From Candidatus Caldarchaeales archaeon (GTDB taxonomy: Archaea > Thermoproteota > Nitrososphaeria_A > Caldarchaeales > Calditenuaceae): a stretch of DNA of 32,000 nucleotides. The stretch's first letter is position 1, and every line of letters starts with the position of its first letter. This document shows, piece after piece, positions 8,905 through 14,925 of this stretch. The notes under the pieces are model-generated. The model had not been told where the DNA came from. It saw only the letters and a program-made list of their open reading frames with translations, and made no database searches. The stretch lies in NCBI GenBank assembly GCA_039630085.1, contig JBCNVM010000006.1, positions 1-32,000 of the forward strand. Direction: 5' to 3'. Made by a program: the position numbers and the translations under genes.

Positions 8905-10647
8905 ATGGTCAAGGTCTACGGGCCGCTGGAGGAGGCGAGGCCGGCGCTGAGGAGGGTCCACGTAAGGGAGGTGGTGCTGGAAAACTTCATGTCGCACGAG
9001 TACAGCAGGGTAAGGATATCGAGGGGGATCAACCTGATCACCGGCCCCAACGGCGCCGGGAAGTCCTCGATACTGCTCGGGATCTCGGTAGCGCTGGGTC
9101 AGAGCTACACCGAGAGGGGCGAGAGGCTCGCGGACCTCATCAGGAGGGGCCGGGACTCCGCGAGGGTGTCGGTCGTGCTGGACAACTCGCCGCTCGACGG
9201 CGAGCGCCCCGTTAAGTCGATCCCGCTCGACACCATCACGATCACCCGGTACATCAAGAGGACCGGAGAGTACTGGCACTACGTCAACAACAGGTTCAGG
9301 ACGAAGGCCGAGGTCGACCAGCTACTAAGGTCCCTTGGGATCAACCCGAACAACCTCCTGATCGTGATGCACCAGAACATGATCGAGGAGTTCGCGGCCC
9401 GCGACGACGCCGAGAAGCTCAGGATGCTCGAGGACGCCGTCGGCCTCTCGTCGATGAGGGAGAGGATCCTCCAGGCGCAGGAGAGGCTCTCGTCCCTGAT
9501 CGGCGAGGTGAACGCGGTGAGGAGGGCCCTCGAGGAGGCGGCGGCCGCCGTTGAGTACTGGAGGTCCGAGGTCGAGAAGCTCTCGAGGAAGAGGGAGCTA
9601 GAGTCGAGGAGGGCGGCCCTAGAGCTGGAGTACCTCTGGAGCCTCGCGAGGTCGACGGAGCTGGCGGCGATGAGGAAGTCGGAGCTGCTCGACCGGGTCA
9701 GGTCCGAGCTCTCCGAGCTCAGGACCGAGGAGGCCGAGGTCTCCGAGAGGCTCAGGTCGGGGAGGTCCGCGCTCGCGGAGCTGCTCAGGTCCGGAGCCGG
9801 CGACGCCGAGTCAATCCTGAGGGAGGTAGACGGGCTGATCGAGCTGGCGGCGCGGAGGGGCGTGATCGGCTACAGGATCGGCGAGCTGGAGAGGGAGGAG
9901 AGGGACCTCGAGAGGGAGATCAGGGCCCTCGAGAGAGAGCTCGAGGAGAGGACGAGGGCCGCGTCGGAGAGGGGGCCGCGGGTCGAGACCGACCGGGAAC
10001 CCACGGAGGTCCAAGAGGAGCTGAAGTTCGTGGCGCTCCAGCTCTCCTCGATCGGGACCGTCGTCGGCGAGGCGGAGGAGATGTACTTCATGGCGGACTC
10101 GAAGTTCAGGGGCCTCCAGATCCGGGCCGAGGAGCTGGAGCAGAACGTCAAGAGGGCGCTCGAGGAGGTCGAGCACCGCAAGAGGGTCTGGAGGGAGAAG
10201 CTCGAGGAGCTGGTTGAGGAGGTCAACCCCGTCTACGACGAGATCCTCTCCAGCGTCGGGGGAACCGGCGCGATCAGGCTCAGGGGACTCGAGGACCCAG
10301 CGACCGCGAGGCTCGAGCTCTACGCGGGCTTCAGGGGGAACCCGGCGACGCTCCTCGACGCGAGGACCCACAGCGGCGGCGAGAGGGTGCTGGCGACGCT
10401 CGGCTTCCTGCTCGCGGTCCAGTCCAGGGTCAAGTCGCCCTTCAGGGCCGTCGACGAGTTCGACGTCCACCTCGACCCTCTGAACAGGGAGAGGATGATG
10501 ACGATGCTCCTCGAGACCGCTCGGAGGCACGGCGACGTCCAGTACATCATCATCACGCCCGGCAGGGTCCCCGAGATGGACGGGGTCAACCTGATCGTGG
10601 TCCAGAACGTCTCCGGGCGCTCGATCGTGACGGGAGGTCAGGTATGA
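8905..10647 (+). CDS. Short SMC-superfamily ATPase: hinge-less, no zinc hook, SMC5/6-like head motifs
   Basis: N-terminal head LENFMSHEY...INLITGPNGAGKSSILLGISVALGQ (Walker A). Q-loop-like IVMHQNMIEEFA. About 240 aa of heptad-rich coiled coil with a Gly-rich turn (LLRSGAGDAES). C-terminal head HSGGERVLATLGFLLAVQ (signature) and SPFRAVDEFDVHLDPLNR (Walker B/D-loop). No Cys residue anywhere in the arm. Confidence 0.8.
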   Translation: MVKVYGPLEEARPALRRVHVREVVLENFMSHEYSRVRISRGINLITGPNGAGKSSILLGISVALGQSYTERGERLADLIRRGRDSARVSVVLDNSPLDGERPVKSIPLDTITITRYIKRTGEYWHYVNNRFRTKAEVDQLLRSLGINPNNLLIVMHQNMIEEFAARDDAEKLRMLEDAVGLSSMRERILQAQERLSSLIGEVNAVRRALEEAAAAVEYWRSEVEKLSRKRELESRRAALELEYLWSLARSTELAAMRKSELLDRVRSELSELRTEEAEVSERLRSGRSALAELLRSGAGDAESILREVDGLIELAARRGVIGYRIGELEREERDLEREIRALERELEERTRAASERGPRVETDREPTEVQEELKFVALQLSSIGTVVGEAEEMYFMADSKFRGLQIRAEELEQNVKRALEEVEHRKRVWREKLEELVEEVNPVYDEILSSVGGTGAIRLRGLEDPATARLELYAGFRGNPATLLDARTHSGGERVLATLGFLLAVQSRVKSPFRAVDEFDVHLDPLNRERMMTMLLETARRHGDVQYIIITPGRVPEMDGVNLIVVQNVSGRSIVTGGQV

Positions 10648-11390
10648 GGCCGGTGGAGGTCAGGGTCGAGGAGCTCCGGAGGATGGCGGCGGCCCTCGAG
10701 TCGGTCCTTAGCATGAAGGTCGAACCATTCACCGTCAACGTCTCCTCCCTCCTCAGGAGGCTCAGGTCGATCATCGAGGAGAGCAGGGACCTAGAGACGG
10801 TCGTCCTCGACGCCGAGGTCCTCTACAGAGTCTCAGTGGTCCTGGGACTCCAGCAGAGGTACATCCTCCAGAGCGCCTCCTCGCTGCTGGTCGACTCCCA
10901 GCTGGTCGTCGCGAAGGTCCTCAGGTCCGAGCCCCACGAGCTCGCAGCGTCCTTCGTCTCTGCGTGGCGCCCCATCGCGAGGGTCGAGCACGTCACAACT
11001 CCCCTGCTCATCAGGGCCTACGAGCACTTCCTCTCGCTCCCGGGGAAGCCGTTGAGGGTCGAGGTCGGGCCGTCCGCGGAGGAGAGGGCCCCGGGCTGGG
11101 AGGCCTACGAGGCTGCGTTCGAGGAGGAGCTGAGGTCGCTGAGGGCGGAGCTCGAGTCCACGGGCGGCTGGGTCGACTACTGGGAGTTCGTCTCGAGGGA
11201 GGGCGACCGCCGTAGGGCCGGCAGGGCCTACCTCCTGAGCTTCCTCATCACCCGGGGCGAGGCCGAGGTCCGGTACGACCCGCTCAGGGAGGAGATCAAG
11301 GTGAGGGCCGCGACCTCTCCGCAGCAGAGGAGGGAGGGCGACGTCCTCTCGCTGGTGATATCGCTGGGTCGGATCGGACAGGGCGGCTGA
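10644..11390 (+). CDS. Kleisin-like (ScpA-like) protein, translationally coupled to the SMC-like ATPase
   Basis: ATGA start/stop overlap at 10644-10647. N-terminal region LDAEVLYRVSVVLGLQQRYIL resembles the kleisin N-domain pattern (LD.a.EYLvmAa.L..iKs..L). C-terminal VDYWEFVS...GRAYLLSFLITRGEAEVRYDPLREEIKVRA resembles the ScpA winged-helix pattern (tFLALLEL.k.g.i.l.Q.e.fgeI.i). Judged by eye only. Confidence 0.55.
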   Translation: MRPVEVRVEELRRMAAALESVLSMKVEPFTVNVSSLLRRLRSIIEESRDLETVVLDAEVLYRVSVVLGLQQRYILQSASSLLVDSQLVVAKVLRSEPHELAASFVSAWRPIARVEHVTTPLLIRAYEHFLSLPGKPLRVEVGPSAEERAPGWEAYEAAFEEELRSLRAELESTGGWVDYWEFVSREGDRRRAGRAYLLSFLITRGEAEVRYDPLREEIKVRAATSPQQRREGDVLSLVISLGRIGQGG

Positions 11391-11460
11391 GCGACGGACT
11401 CAACCCATGGCCAATCCCCCGGCCTCCGGGCTCCACTTCCGGCAGGGTTGAGTAGCGGGT

Positions 11461-11530
11461 CCACTTTCGGAGCGCACTCGGACTTTCGGGAGACCCTCCG
11501 TGGATTTCGGGGACCTCGACCGCCTTCGGG
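11461..11530 (+). repeat. Four phased TTTCGG/TTCGGG direct repeats about 20 bp apart, just upstream of ATG 11534
   Basis: ccacTTTCGGag (TTCGG at 11466), ggacTTTCGGGag (11485), ggaTTTCGGGGa (11506), cgccTTCGGGcc (11525). Spacings are 19, 21 and 19 nt. A related CACTTCCGG lies at 11434-11442. Confidence 0.5.
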
Positions 11531-11533
11531 CCG

Positions 11534-11815
11534 ATGGGCAGGACCGTCCCGACGTACAGGCAGAGGCTCCTGGCCGAGCTCGAGAGGTGGAGGTGCTTCA
11601 GGTCGGCGCTCCTGAGGGAGGAGAGGGAGGACTTCGACGGGCTGGTGGACCAGGCCTTCTCCTACGTCCACGCGGGCTCCATGTGCCCAGATAGGGAGGC
11701 TTTCGAGGTGCTGGTGTTCTCGCTGCTCCTCGCCCACGAGTCGAGGCTCAGGTCGCTCGAGAGGGCGGCCGGCCTCGAGGCTCCCAGGGTCGGGACGAAG
11801 GGGCTTGATCGGTAG
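11534..11815 (+). CDS. Small alpha-helical protein of unknown function; its 3' end overlaps the PolB start
   Basis: 93 aa: MGRTVPTYRQRLLAELERWRCFRSALLREEREDFDGLVDQAFSYVHAGS...FEVLVFSLLLAHESRLRSLE. Composition is protein-like. It overlaps the PolB TTG start by 11 nt in a different frame. It looks like a conserved archaeal hypothetical, but I cannot name the family. Confidence 0.5.
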   Translation: MGRTVPTYRQRLLAELERWRCFRSALLREEREDFDGLVDQAFSYVHAGSMCPDREAFEVLVFSLLLAHESRLRSLERAAGLEAPRVGTKGLDR

Positions 11816-13988
11816 GCTGCTGGACCTGAACGTCACGCCCGACGGCGAGGCGGTCGAGCTCTGGCTCAAGTCCGGAGAGTCCCGGGTCGAGAGGGTCCGC
11901 GTCGGGTGGAGGCCCTCGGTCTGCGCGGTCGGGCCCGAGAGCGCGCTGGAGGAGCTCGCGAGGGCGTTCGGCGAGCGCTCGGAGCAGGTAATGGCCTCGG
12001 AGGAGCCCGGGAAGGAGCCGAGGCCGGCGCTGAGGATTAGGGCGAGGGCTTGGGAGAGGAGGGAGCTCGCGAGGCGGATCGAGTCGTCCTTCGGGAGAGG
12101 AGGTGTCAGGGTCTACGACGTTGACGTCCCGGTGCTGCAGCAGTTCCTCTACGAGCACGGGCTCTTCCCCACCGCGCTGGTCGAGGTCGCGGGAGACCGG
12201 CTGAGGGCCCTCGACTCGAGGGAGGACGCGGACTACGATGTCTCGTGGGTCAGGGTCGTGGAGCTCGAGGTCTCGACGCGGGGAGGCTCGGCCTACCCCG
12301 ACTTCGACGAGCCCCTGAGGTCCTTGAGGCTGAACTCCGGGGAGGGAGAGGTGGAGCTGGAAGGCGACGAGCCCGGCGTCCTCGAGGAGCTGAAGAGGGC
12401 CGTGGAGCCCTTCGACGTGCTGCTGGTCAGGGGCGGCGACTCCTTCGCGATGCACTACCTCCGCCACAGGGCGTCGGTCAACGGCGTCGAGCTCGAGCTT
12501 GGGAGGGACAGGTCCCCGAGGCCGAGGAGGGACTCGAGGGCCTACTGGAGCTACGGCAGGGTCTACAGGAGGCACAGCGCCTTCAGGCTGAGGGGAAGGG
12601 TCCACGTCGACCCGCTCAACTCCTTCGTCTACGCCCACTCGGGGCTCAACGGCCTCCTCGAGGTAGCTAGGACCTGCGTCGTCCCGCTCCACGACGCCGC
12701 GAGGTACACGATCGGGCAGTGCATGACCTCCCTTCAGTTCGAGGTCGCGAACAGGAGGAACGTCCTCGTGCCTTGGAAGGCCGGAAGGCCGCTCTACTTC
12801 ACCCTCGGGGAGCTCAGCCTGATGGACAGGGGAGGCCTCACGCTCGACCACAGGCCCGGAGTCTACTGGGGAGTCGCGGAGATCGACTTCCAGAGCATGT
12901 ACCCGATGATCATCCTGACGAGGAACGTAAGTGCCGAGACCGTGAACTGCGGGTGCTGCGGCGGCCGCGGAACGCCGGTCCCTGAGATCGGAGGCCACAC
13001 CTGCTCGAGGAGGGTCGGGCTCGTCCCGGAGGCGATATCGCTCCCGCTCAGGAAGAGGCTCGCCTACAAGTCGATGCTCAGGGAGGGGAGGGGCGACCCG
13101 GAGGTCCTCGGGGCGAGGTCGGACGCGCTGAAGTGGGTCCTCGTCTCGTCCTTCGGATACCTGGGCTTCAGGAAGGCTAAGTTCGGGTCGAGGCTCGCCC
13201 ACATGGCCGTCTGCGCCCACGCCAGGGACGCGTTGTTGAAGGCGGTGAGGGTCGCGGAGCGGATGGGCTTCGAGGTCGTCCACGGGATCGTCGACTCGCT
13301 CTGGGTCAGGAGGGAGGGCGCGGCGGAGGAGGACTACCTGGAGCTGGTGAAGGCGATCGAGGAGGAGACCGGCCTGCCCGCGGCCCTCGAGGGGACCTAC
13401 CGGTGGATCGCGTTCCTCCCATCGAAGTCCTCTCCGCTCAGGCCCGTCAACGGGAGGTACTTCGGCTTCAAGACCGACGGCAGGGTGAAGTTCAGGGGGA
13501 TAGAGGCGAGGAGGTCGGACACGCCGCCGCTGGTCAGGAGGATGCAGCTGGAGATGCTCGAGGTCCTCTCGAGGGTCGAGGCCCCCGAAGACCTTCCGGG
13601 CGCAGCGGAGGAGTGCGTCGGCGTGCTGAGGAGGTACGAGAGGGACCTAGTCCTCGGGAGGGTGGGCGTGGAGGACCTGGTGGTGACGGTGAGGCTCTCG
13701 AGGGACCCCCTCGGTTACGTCAACAGGGTCAGGCAGGCGGCGGCAGCGAGGAGGCTCCTGAGGATGGGCGTGGAGGTCGGGGCCGGGAGCGCCGTCAGCT
13801 ACGTCGCCCTCGGAGAGGGCTCCGCGCCCTACCCTTCGGAGGAACCAATCAGCCCCGCCTGCTGCTCGACGAGGTTCTACCTGAACGCGCTCAGGAGGGC
13901 CGCGGAGACGATCATCTCGCCGCTGGTCCGGGCCGCGGCCGAGGCGCGCGGTGGACCCGTCGCCGTCAGGGCCTCAGCAGCACCTTGA
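11805..13988 (+). CDS. polB: Family B DNA polymerase with degenerate exonuclease and polymerase motifs (PolB2-like)
   Basis: Motif A DFQSMYPMIILTRN is intact. Motif B is KWVLVSSFGYLGF, versus the usual K...NS.YG. Motif C is VVHGIVDSLWV, versus YGDTDS. The K.Y/thumb region reads GRYFGF...FRGIEARRSDTPPLV. The Exo I position reads VVELEVST (no D.E) and the Exo II position GGDSFAMHYL (versus N...FD..Y). Length 727 aa, no intein. Confidence 0.8.
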   Translation: MIGRLLDLNVTPDGEAVELWLKSGESRVERVRVGWRPSVCAVGPESALEELARAFGERSEQVMASEEPGKEPRPALRIRARAWERRELARRIESSFGRGGVRVYDVDVPVLQQFLYEHGLFPTALVEVAGDRLRALDSREDADYDVSWVRVVELEVSTRGGSAYPDFDEPLRSLRLNSGEGEVELEGDEPGVLEELKRAVEPFDVLLVRGGDSFAMHYLRHRASVNGVELELGRDRSPRPRRDSRAYWSYGRVYRRHSAFRLRGRVHVDPLNSFVYAHSGLNGLLEVARTCVVPLHDAARYTIGQCMTSLQFEVANRRNVLVPWKAGRPLYFTLGELSLMDRGGLTLDHRPGVYWGVAEIDFQSMYPMIILTRNVSAETVNCGCCGGRGTPVPEIGGHTCSRRVGLVPEAISLPLRKRLAYKSMLREGRGDPEVLGARSDALKWVLVSSFGYLGFRKAKFGSRLAHMAVCAHARDALLKAVRVAERMGFEVVHGIVDSLWVRREGAAEEDYLELVKAIEEETGLPAALEGTYRWIAFLPSKSSPLRPVNGRYFGFKTDGRVKFRGIEARRSDTPPLVRRMQLEMLEVLSRVEAPEDLPGAAEECVGVLRRYERDLVLGRVGVEDLVVTVRLSRDPLGYVNRVRQAAAARRLLRMGVEVGAGSAVSYVALGEGSAPYPSEEPISPACCSTRFYLNALRRAAETIISPLVRAAAEARGGPVAVRASAAP

Positions 13989-14925
13989 GCGTCCCCGGAG
14001 AGGACGCGGCCGCGAAGGCCTCCCGGTGCTCCTCGAGCCTGTAGATGGCGTCTATCAGCCTTCTGACGTCGACGAGCCCCCTCTCCAGCGCCCTGATGGC
14101 CGGCCTGAAGGGGCCGCACCTCGAGCCTACGACGTGAACCTCGTCGACGACGACCTTCGCGAGGTCGATCCTGTACTCGGCGGCGATCGTGGACTTCAGG
14201 ACCAAGTAGCCCCTCGGCCTGACGAGCTTCAGCGCGGTCGCCAGCCCCTCCGCCCTCCCCGTGGCCTCGACCACGAGGTCGTAGGAGGACTCGTCGCCCG
14301 GAGCCAGGCCCTCGGCCGCGTCGATCCCGAGCTCCCTCAGCAGCCCTATCTTCCTCCCGTGCTTCCCGATCACCCTCAGCCTCGAGACCCTGTCCCTCAG
14401 GACCTGCGCGATCAGGTTCGCGAGCCTCCCGTCGCCGACCACGCAGGCGCTCCAGCTCGGGTCGACGTGGACCTGCTCGAGGACCTCGAAGGCCGCGGCG
14501 AGGGGCTCAACGAAGACGGCCCTCTCGTCCTCGACCGAGTCCGGAACCCTGTGTAAGTTCTCGGCCGGAAGCCTCAGGTACTCCGCGAACGCTCCGTCCC
14601 TCCCCTTGATCCCGAGGACGGTCCTGTTCCTGCAGTGCCTCCTCAGCCCGACCGAGCACATGTCGCACCTCCCGCAGGCGGCGTTGATCTCTCCCACCAC
14701 CCTCGCGCCCACGAGGTCGCTCCTGTCCGACTCGACCACCTCGCCGACGAACTCGTGCCCCGGGACTCCCCTGAAGCCCGCGTAACCCTTCAGTATCTGG
14801 AGGTCGGTGCCGCAGATCCCCGCGAGCCTCACCCTGATCAGCGCCTCGCCGTGCCGTTCGACCGAGTGATCCTCCACGAGCCTGATCTCCCGGCCGTCGA
14901 AGTAGAGAGCCTTGCATCTCACCAT
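13966..14925 (-). CDS. Zn-dependent medium-chain alcohol/threonine-type dehydrogenase
   Basis: GICGTDLQILKGY...VPGHEFVGEVVE (catalytic Zn site) and CGRCDMCSVGLRRHC (structural Zn). The start ATG is 1 nt after the EcfT stop. The 3' end overlaps the PolB 3' end by 23 nt (convergent). Confidence 0.85.
   Translation of the reverse strand: MVRCKALYFDGREIRLVEDHSVERHGEALIRVRLAGICGTDLQILKGYAGFRGVPGHEFVGEVVESDRSDLVGARVVGEINAACGRCDMCSVGLRRHCRNRTVLGIKGRDGAFAEYLRLPAENLHRVPDSVEDERAVFVEPLAAAFEVLEQVHVDPSWSACVVGDGRLANLIAQVLRDRVSRLRVIGKHGRKIGLLRELGIDAAEGLAPGDESSYDLVVEATGRAEGLATALKLVRPRGYLVLKSTIAAEYRIDLAKVVVDEVHVVGSRCGPFRPAIRALERGLVDVRRLIDAIYRLEEHREAFAAASSPGTLKVLLRP

Follow-up and report, generated by a model that had tools for sequence, protein, structure and literature searches.

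A PolB2-type DNA polymerase and its small overlapping partner PPB2 in a Caldarchaeales genome: probable subunits of an archaeal translesion mutasome

What is encoded by a family-B DNA polymerase gene with degenerate catalytic motifs and the short open reading frame (ORF) that overlaps its start, and do the two products belong together? Both lie in a 32,000-nucleotide (nt) stretch, hereafter the window (G+C 62-69%), of contig JBCNVM010000006.1 in the Candidatus Caldarchaeales assembly GCA_039630085.1 (labelled G000), a metagenome-assembled genome of 1.41 Mb that is 89.9% complete. Our answer, to which we assign a probability of roughly 0.8, is that two subunits of the archaeal PolB2 translesion 'mutasome' are encoded here: the catalytic one, of PolB2 (Dpo2) type, and the small one, PPB2 (arCOG07300). 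The two genes overlap and look co-transcribed, and are located as follows (lengths in amino acids, aa).

11534..11815, + strand: PPB2 (arCOG07300, 'Partner of PolB2'), 93 aa; ATG at 11534, TAG at 11813-11815; arm MGRTVPTYRQ followed by three helices
11805..13988, + strand: PolB2 (Dpo2-type family-B DNA polymerase), 727 aa; TTG start within the PPB2 end

Re-reading of the ORFs bore out the 11-nt overlap in different frames that a sequence-only reading of this DNA had noticed. The polymerase frame is +1 relative to the small ORF, and TTG 11805 is the earliest possible start in it. The same reading had presented the small partner as new. However, arCOG07300, an all-helical protein of about 90 aa, was linked to PolB2 in 2013-14 (Makarova & Koonin 2013; Makarova et al. 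2014, PMC4104785), and Timinskas et al. in 2025 renamed it PPB2, described its conserved 'MGRT' arm with Arg3 and Arg9, and modelled it as a PolB2 subunit (PMC11791011). The core finding, a degenerate PolB2 overlapped by a small partner, had been published before and is a rediscovery. The pair matters as a correct annotation, since every homologue of the small protein is named 'hypothetical protein' in public records. The modest additions concern iRadA, the ATPase-dead RadA homologue that lies beside PolB2 and PPB2 in the published three-gene operon and was not detectable in this hot-spring lineage; the unlinking of the two genes in a sister family that has a common promoter element; and the extension of that ANTTTC element to Caldarchaeales.

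The small protein had 234 database homologues at E<=1e-3, and a 28-sequence PPB2 alignment contained 19 invariant columns. The ratio of nonsynonymous to synonymous differences (pN/pS) was 0.26-0.60 against five orthologues. By these measures the small ORF is a real gene and not a chance high-GC ORF. BLASTP against PPB2 from the PMC11791011 supplement gave 37% identity over 76 aa (E 4e-17). The N-terminus MGRTVPTYRQ has the MGRT motif, Arg3 and Arg9 as described for PPB2, and M1, G2, R3, T7, Y8 and Q10 were invariant in 16 orthologues. An AlphaFold2 model (mean predicted local distance difference test score, pLDDT, 80.7) showed a free arm at residues 1-7 and three helices at 8-24, 28-48 and 56-78, consistent with the helical protein foreseen from the sequence. 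All PPB2 homologues bear one precomputed family, PF26485; Pfam and NCBIfam scans of the 93-aa protein gave no match, nor did a profile of the PPB2 family against PDB sequences. Judged from its sequence, the 93-aa ORF is PPB2 (arCOG07300). Two points weigh against the assignment to a mutasome: the structural match of PPB2 to sigma-factor region 2 was not significant (template modelling score 0.49, E 8), and the heteromeric PolB2 complex is a computational model only, even in Sulfolobus.

The distribution of PPB2 was compared across 41 related genomes, 21 of which carry the PolB2 clade of the window and 11 of which are without PolB2. PPB2 was present in 19 of the 21 genomes with the clade's PolB2, the PolB2 of the remaining two being cut at a contig end, and in none of the 11 PolB2-less genomes (0/11). 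The homologues thus co-occurred with PolB2, and they lay directly upstream of it in six genera (g1, g2, g4, g8, g9 and g12). This co-occurrence, together with the homologues and the pN/pS values, upholds the earlier suggestion that the small ORF is not noise and encodes a translationally coupled accessory subunit.

The 727-aa protein matched Pfam DNA_pol_B with an E-value of 1.2e-17. In an IQ-TREE maximum-likelihood tree of 21 sequences it fell in a 100/99 clade of Caldarchaeales sequences inside PolB2, which was itself split with 100/98 support from the PolB1 and PolB3-like polymerases of the same genomes. The PolB2-group affiliation proposed earlier was thereby sustained, and on its alignments and tree position the polymerase is a member of the PolB2 (Dpo2) group. 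Its motif readings were checked in two alignments, one made with phmmer against Pyrococcus abyssi PolB and one of 21 sequences made with MAFFT.

12261..12275, + strand: Exo I remnant ELEVS, aa 153-157; catalytic Glu replaced by Ser157, by alignment with PolB1 DIE
12432..12461, + strand: Exo II remnant GGDSFAMHYL, aa 210-219; catalytic Asp of 'FD' replaced by Ala
12789..12836, + strand: loop PLYFTLGELSLM followed by the DRGG motif, aa 329-344; roles as in published models
12885..12914, + strand: polymerase motif A DFQSMYPMII, aa 361-370, intact in the alignments
13131..13160, + strand: polymerase motif B KWVLVSSFGY, aa 443-452, PolB2 family variant by the alignments and the published PolB2 table
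13281..13298, + strand: polymerase motif C HGIVDS, aa 493-498; first Asp of DTD replaced by Ile, metal-ligand Asp497 kept

Both alignments confirmed that motif A is intact and that motif C retains the second Asp only; proper alignment did not recover a canonical DTD. Motif B lacks the conserved Asn and Tyr of Kx3NSxYG, as had been read from the sequence, with Val and Phe at these positions. The statement that the acidic Exo I and Exo II residues are missing held in part: both catalytic residues are replaced, but Exo I keeps Glu155 at the Asp position of DxE, where an acidic residue is not conserved among relatives. The GGDSF(x) form of Exo II was common to all PolB2 sequences aligned. The DRGG motif (aa 341-344) corresponds to the D(K/R) motif before motif A and was invariant in 24 distinct PolB2 sequences; in the published models it touches the PPB2 arm, and the loop before it binds iRadA (PMC11791011). 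We searched the C-termini of the clade's PolB2 proteins for a canonical PCNA-binding box and found none.

The sequence-only reading had described the motifs as rewritten in this gene. They are instead a family signature: ALKW[IV]LV..FGYLG, HGIVDS[LI]W, GGDSF and DRGG are all present and identical to entries in the published PolB2 table. In that table, haloarchaeal PolB2 reads ALKWILV..FGY...HGIVDSIWV, with the same HGIVDS(I/L)WV as in the window, and PolB2 of a Nitrososphaerota archaeon reads ALKWVLVTSFGYLGF...HAIVDSIWV (PMC11791011). Motif C of Sulfolobus islandicus Dpo2 reads IID.

Three other readings of the pair were weighed. The ORFs overlap in different frames, and Sulfolobus dpo2 was formerly annotated as a frameshifted gene; both would suit a polymerase whose N-terminal portion is the 93-aa ORF, with a programmed +1 frameshift at the 11-nt overlap making one product of the two. 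The sequence-only reading, which had raised a frameshift fusion, had also mentioned a small 'amino-end' ORF of Sulfolobus dpo2; this was correct, sso8124/sso1459 having been taken as a frameshifted gene in 2007 (PMC2246294) and SiRe_0614/0615 having been annotated as two Dpo2 parts in 2018 (PMC6061795). However, the junction varied among relatives in spacing (overlaps of 20, 11, 5 and 1 nt; gaps of 11 and 17 nt) and in frame offset (+1 or +2), PolB2 of the sister species begins with ATG, and family f4 keeps the two genes far apart, by hundreds of kilobases in G024. The pair therefore consists of two separate, translationally coupled proteins rather than a programmed frameshift product. Furthermore, PolB2 alone aligns, from its residue 3 onward, with full-length family models; the top NCBIfam model, NF004416 (351 bits), spans the whole polymerase from residue 8, and thus no N-terminal piece is missing. 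A frameshift fusion is accordingly extremely unlikely. Hardly more can be said for a small protein of the PBP1/PBP2 type. These accessory subunits of the Sulfolobus PolB1 holoenzyme are likewise very small and bind a crenarchaeal family-B polymerase (PMC5418573), but that enzyme is the replicative PolB1, a different polymerase; the 93-aa protein matches published PPB2 directly and tracks PolB2, not PolB1, which every genome has. The PPB2 family profile found no solved structure, which speaks against the PBP1/PBP2 type, and profile searches detected no sequence relation between these proteins and the 93-aa protein. The 'inactivated PolB' view first put forward in 2008, in which a catalytically dead polymerase acts structurally or as a regulator, could account for the replacement of the first motif C Asp, of the motif B Asn and Tyr, and of the Exo I and Exo II catalytic residues. 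Against it, S. islandicus Dpo2 shares the Ile-x-Asp form of motif C and had for a long time been predicted to lack activity, yet it is a robust exonuclease-free polymerase that extends mismatched termini (PMC8764526), and damage-induced mutagenesis requires it. Throughout the clade, the 21-sequence alignment shows conservation of motif A, the second motif C Asp and the fingers Lys, which also argues against a dead enzyme, and we regard this view as very improbable.

The earlier guess that residual activity is plausible therefore agrees with experiment on a family member (PMC8764526); a further source on the activity of the PolB2 family is PMC7390963. By analogy with S. islandicus Dpo2, PolB2 of the window would be an active exonuclease-free polymerase using the motif A Asp and the remaining motif C Asp497, and may mainly extend mismatched or lesion-opposed primer ends. 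Its translation probably restarts at the TTG within the PPB2 stop region. The published "mutasome" model, PolB2-iRadA-PPB2(x3), contains a PPB2 trimer with one arm between PolB2, iRadA and DNA (PMC11791011). If these AlphaFold models apply here, PPB2 would form a trimer and insert one MGRT N-terminal arm beside the DRGG loop and DNA.

iRadA was searched for with two single-sequence probes and an 11-sequence hidden Markov model (HMM). In the source genome, these searches returned only canonical RadA and one RadA paralogue, and the same result was obtained in about 21 clade genomes, one of them a single contig that is 99% complete. There was also no iRadA beside PolB2 and PPB2 in the window, where an SMC-like ATPase and its 248-aa partner lie upstream and a convergent alcohol dehydrogenase gene lies downstream. 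In other Thermoproteota, one of the single-sequence probes did detect iRadA, immediately upstream of PPB2 in 11 of 12 loci, with E-values of 1e-27 to 1e-42; the twelfth locus ends at a contig end. Within Caldarchaeales, iRadA is retained in two other arrangements, that of G028 and that of genus g3, which has RadA, iRadA, PPB2 and a deep-branching PolB2. No Caldarchaeales were among the entries listed in the consulted part of the PMC11791011 supplement. The loop before DRGG, which contacts iRadA in the published models, reads (E)xFK[ST]A-x-ELL-x-DRGGF in iRadA-linked PolB2 and has a clade-specific consensus, Y[MFIL]x[GAL]...DRGGL, in the clade of the window.

We lean slightly toward a true absence of iRadA from this Caldarchaeales PolB2 clade, and hold no firmer view because very degenerate iRadAs are known. 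With no iRadA gene found, a clade working as PolB2 and PPB2 only is favoured to the same modest degree. Three points weigh against these views: some iRadAs are so degenerate that only HHpred-level methods detect them (Makarova 2014, PMC4104785), the pre-DRGG loop is altered but not deleted, with the same length and the hydrophobic-x-x-small pattern kept, and the incompleteness of a metagenome-assembled source genome limits claims of absence. The same points, and the presence in the genome of a RadA paralogue with the Walker A sequence GEEKSGRT, would be expected of a canonical three-protein mutasome whose iRadA has diverged beyond detection, is encoded in sequence missing from the assembly, or has had its role taken over by canonical RadA or by the paralogue. 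We consider this rather unlikely. None of the roughly 21 clade genomes, one of them a nearly complete single contig, yielded iRadA, although one of the same probes detected it with very low E-values in other classes; the paralogue also occurs in genomes without PolB2 and PPB2, with an intact GKT in some orthologues; and the published models rejected RadA as a partner of PolB2 (PMC11791011). The fuller proposal, in which the clade dispensed with iRadA and works as a two-component PolB2-PPB2 system with a remodelled contact loop, and in which the same Orc1-2-type damage promoter ties together the separated genes of one family, has in our estimate an even chance of being right.

Two candidates for iRadA were examined and rejected. 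The 248-aa upstream ORF, taken as a decayed iRadA, had no iRadA HMM match, overlaps the SMC-like gene, and adjoins PPB2 in only part of the genus. The RadA paralogue (G000:C19:427-1164) was found in 39 of the 40 relatives searched, including PolB2-less ones, and GKT is intact in some of its orthologues, so it does not qualify as a partner specific to PolB2.

If iRadA is truly absent, the RadA-like subunit is not essential to the mutasome, and the iRadA-less clade offers a pared-down natural form of the so far only modelled PolB2 mutasome. Should the clade's PolB2 and PPB2 assemble into a stable, active complex, a first experimental structure would be easier to seek with them, and they would show what iRadA adds elsewhere.

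Some operons with iRadA had unusual arrangements. In G016 of genus g3 (L028, G016:C24), radA is accompanied by a gene in which iRadA and PPB2 are fused, with an MGRI start motif inside it, and by a PolB2 whose motif C, YGDVDS, is intact. G028 (L029, G028:C36) has a zinc-ribbon-iRadA gene, then a single ORF with two PPB2 repeats, then PolB2. L061 (G136:C78) is a canonical iRadA-PPB2-PolB2 operon with DUF72 neighbours, in which PolB2 is split into ORFs of 387 and 377 aa by a frameshift or an assembly error.

The spacer before PPB2 is 143 nt long and holds several elements, with positions below counted from the PPB2 ATG.

11407..11414, + strand: ATGGCCAA box, some 127 nt before the PPB2 ATG
11435..11442, + strand: ACTTCCGG, degenerate distal ANTTTC copy (ACTTCC at 11435); in relatives, a complete ANTTTC occurs at about -99 to -107
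11463..11470, + strand: ACTTTCGG, DNA-damage-response-element-like site at -71; agrees with ANTTTC-RG; all five g1 loci have it at -71
11482..11496, + strand: ACTTTCGGGAGACCC, proximal DNA-damage-response-element-like site at -52; fits the S. islandicus Orc1-2 consensus
11502..11510, + strand: GGATTTCGG, putative TATA-box position, -32 to -24; aligns with CTTATCA, GATATCA and AATTTCA of relatives at the same start-codon distance

In S. islandicus, Orc1-2 binds an element of this kind, which has the consensus AATAGTTTCRGWDTACTCWS and lies 23-55 nt upstream of the ATG, and thereby activates damage-induced genes, dpo2 among them (PMC6061795). The sites ACTTTCGG and ACTTTCGGGAGACCC are the sole pair of ANTTTCRG sites within 45 nt of each other in the 1.41-Mb genome. 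Of 20 loci inspected, 19 had an ANTTTC upstream of PPB2: 16 at -52 to -56, L004 and L005 at -71, and L020 at -36. Only L011 lacked it. In most loci, xG-N4-CTC comes after the element, and then a TATA-like CTTATCA some 30 nt ahead of the start. The element also precedes the unlinked PPB2 of family f4 and the unlinked PolB2 of G024. Further upstream, the ATGGCCAA octamer lies about 105-130 nt before PPB2 in loci of four genera (g1, g4 and g9 among them) with unrelated upstream genes, and the distal ANTTTC follows it by 8-10 nt in most such loci; family f4 has the related TGGCCGT. Since the TATA position lies at -32 to -24, the mRNA would be leaderless or near-leaderless, and that of PPB2 is probably leaderless.

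The long pattern occurs seven times in the 1.41-Mb genome, and two of the other occurrences precede ORFs, namely an Orc1/Cdc6 gene and an unannotated 652-aa ORF. Of the two Orc1/Cdc6 paralogues in the genome, one has the same element in its own promoter: the 396-aa protein encoded at L087 (G000:C45:97500-98690, minus strand) has ACTTTCAGCTCACCC together with a TATA-like box 62 nt before its ATG. The element and TATA before the orc1/cdc6 orthologue are kept in genera g1, g2, g4, g5 and g6, and not in most of g3 or in g9. Because the PPB2 promoter has ANTTTC-RG-N4-CTC elements just upstream of the TATA position, we regard the PPB2-PolB2 pair as probably damage-induced, together with the orc1/cdc6 gene that has the same element. 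DNA damage would switch the pair on through these Orc1-2-type elements. The following points weigh against this interpretation: the 15-mer of the window departs from the consensus ANTTTC-RG-N4-CTC in having CCC instead of CTC, the motif on which the damage reading rests is short, and the local orc1/cdc6 is a candidate counterpart of Orc1-2 only. The conserved ANTTTC element suggests that the Sulfolobales Orc1-2 damage response may also operate in Caldarchaeales. If so, the ANTTTC damage regulon would span from Sulfolobales to the Nitrososphaeria side of Thermoproteota.

Additional occurrences of these features were observed. In the one-contig genome G024, the orc1/cdc6 orthologue lies at position 98 and may adjoin a replication origin. 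Promoter-position ANTTTCRG sites were found at G000:C1:130333 and G000:C1:187566; one precedes the 652-aa ORF, which had no Pfam match, and the other precedes a 141-aa ORF (MANRIMTS...VLVEGRTDAEALRSAG) that is possibly Toprim-like. In f4 loci L008, L012, L013 and L015-L017, PPB2 occurs by itself with an ANTTTC promoter of its own; it is preceded by the gene for a conserved protein of about 430 aa and followed by either a tRNA gene or a convergent RtcB-like gene. The f4 genomes also have additional PPB2 paralogues, some with internal stops (for example G024:C1:728452). The PPB2 C-termini in L011, L013, L016 and L017 of this family, ...SLQDFF or ...TLNHFLEK, resemble PCNA-binding boxes without the Gln.

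Comparison with known systems places the pair closest to the published PolB2 mutasome operon (PMC4104785, PMC11791011). The two share the polymerase motifs (IVD, KW[IV]LV..FGY, a dead exonuclease and DRGG) and a small three-helix partner with an MGRT arm, encoded directly upstream of PolB2 and overlapping it. They differ in iRadA, which the published system has and which was not detectable in the window locus, the genome or about 21 relatives, in the consensus of the iRadA-contact loop, and in the unlinking of PPB2 and PolB2 in the sister family. The S. islandicus Dpo2 locus (SiRe_0614/0615; PPB2-PolB2-iRadA) also has PPB2 first, Ile in place of the first motif C Asp, and ANTTTC no more than about 55 nt from the start codon, the arrangement seen in damage-induced promoters that depend on Orc1-2. 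However, the Sulfolobus enzyme is shorter, its exonuclease domain is more decayed and iRadA lies downstream; induction and activity were demonstrated there, whereas for the window they are predicted. More distantly, Escherichia coli Pol V (UmuD'2C-RecA) and eukaryotic Pol zeta are likewise proofreading-free, damage-induced, multi-subunit translesion or extender polymerases. The small subunit of Pol V inserts an N-terminal arm near the active site, an analogy to PPB2 drawn in PMC11791011. Pol V, however, belongs to the unrelated catalytic family Y and needs RecA, whereas no RecA-family partner is apparent here, and neither Pol V nor Pol zeta has a PPB2 homologue.

The genes flanking the pair are of other kinds. 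Window positions 8905-11390 hold an SMC_N/AAA_23 ATPase of 580 aa with a 4-nt overlap to the 248-aa ORF, which had no family match; the ATPase and its partner lie directly upstream of PPB2 in only 3 of the 5 g1 loci that have an upstream flank. On the other side, the 3' end of PolB2 overlaps the 3' end of a convergent zinc alcohol dehydrogenase gene (13966-14925, minus strand) by 23 nt, at 13966-13988.

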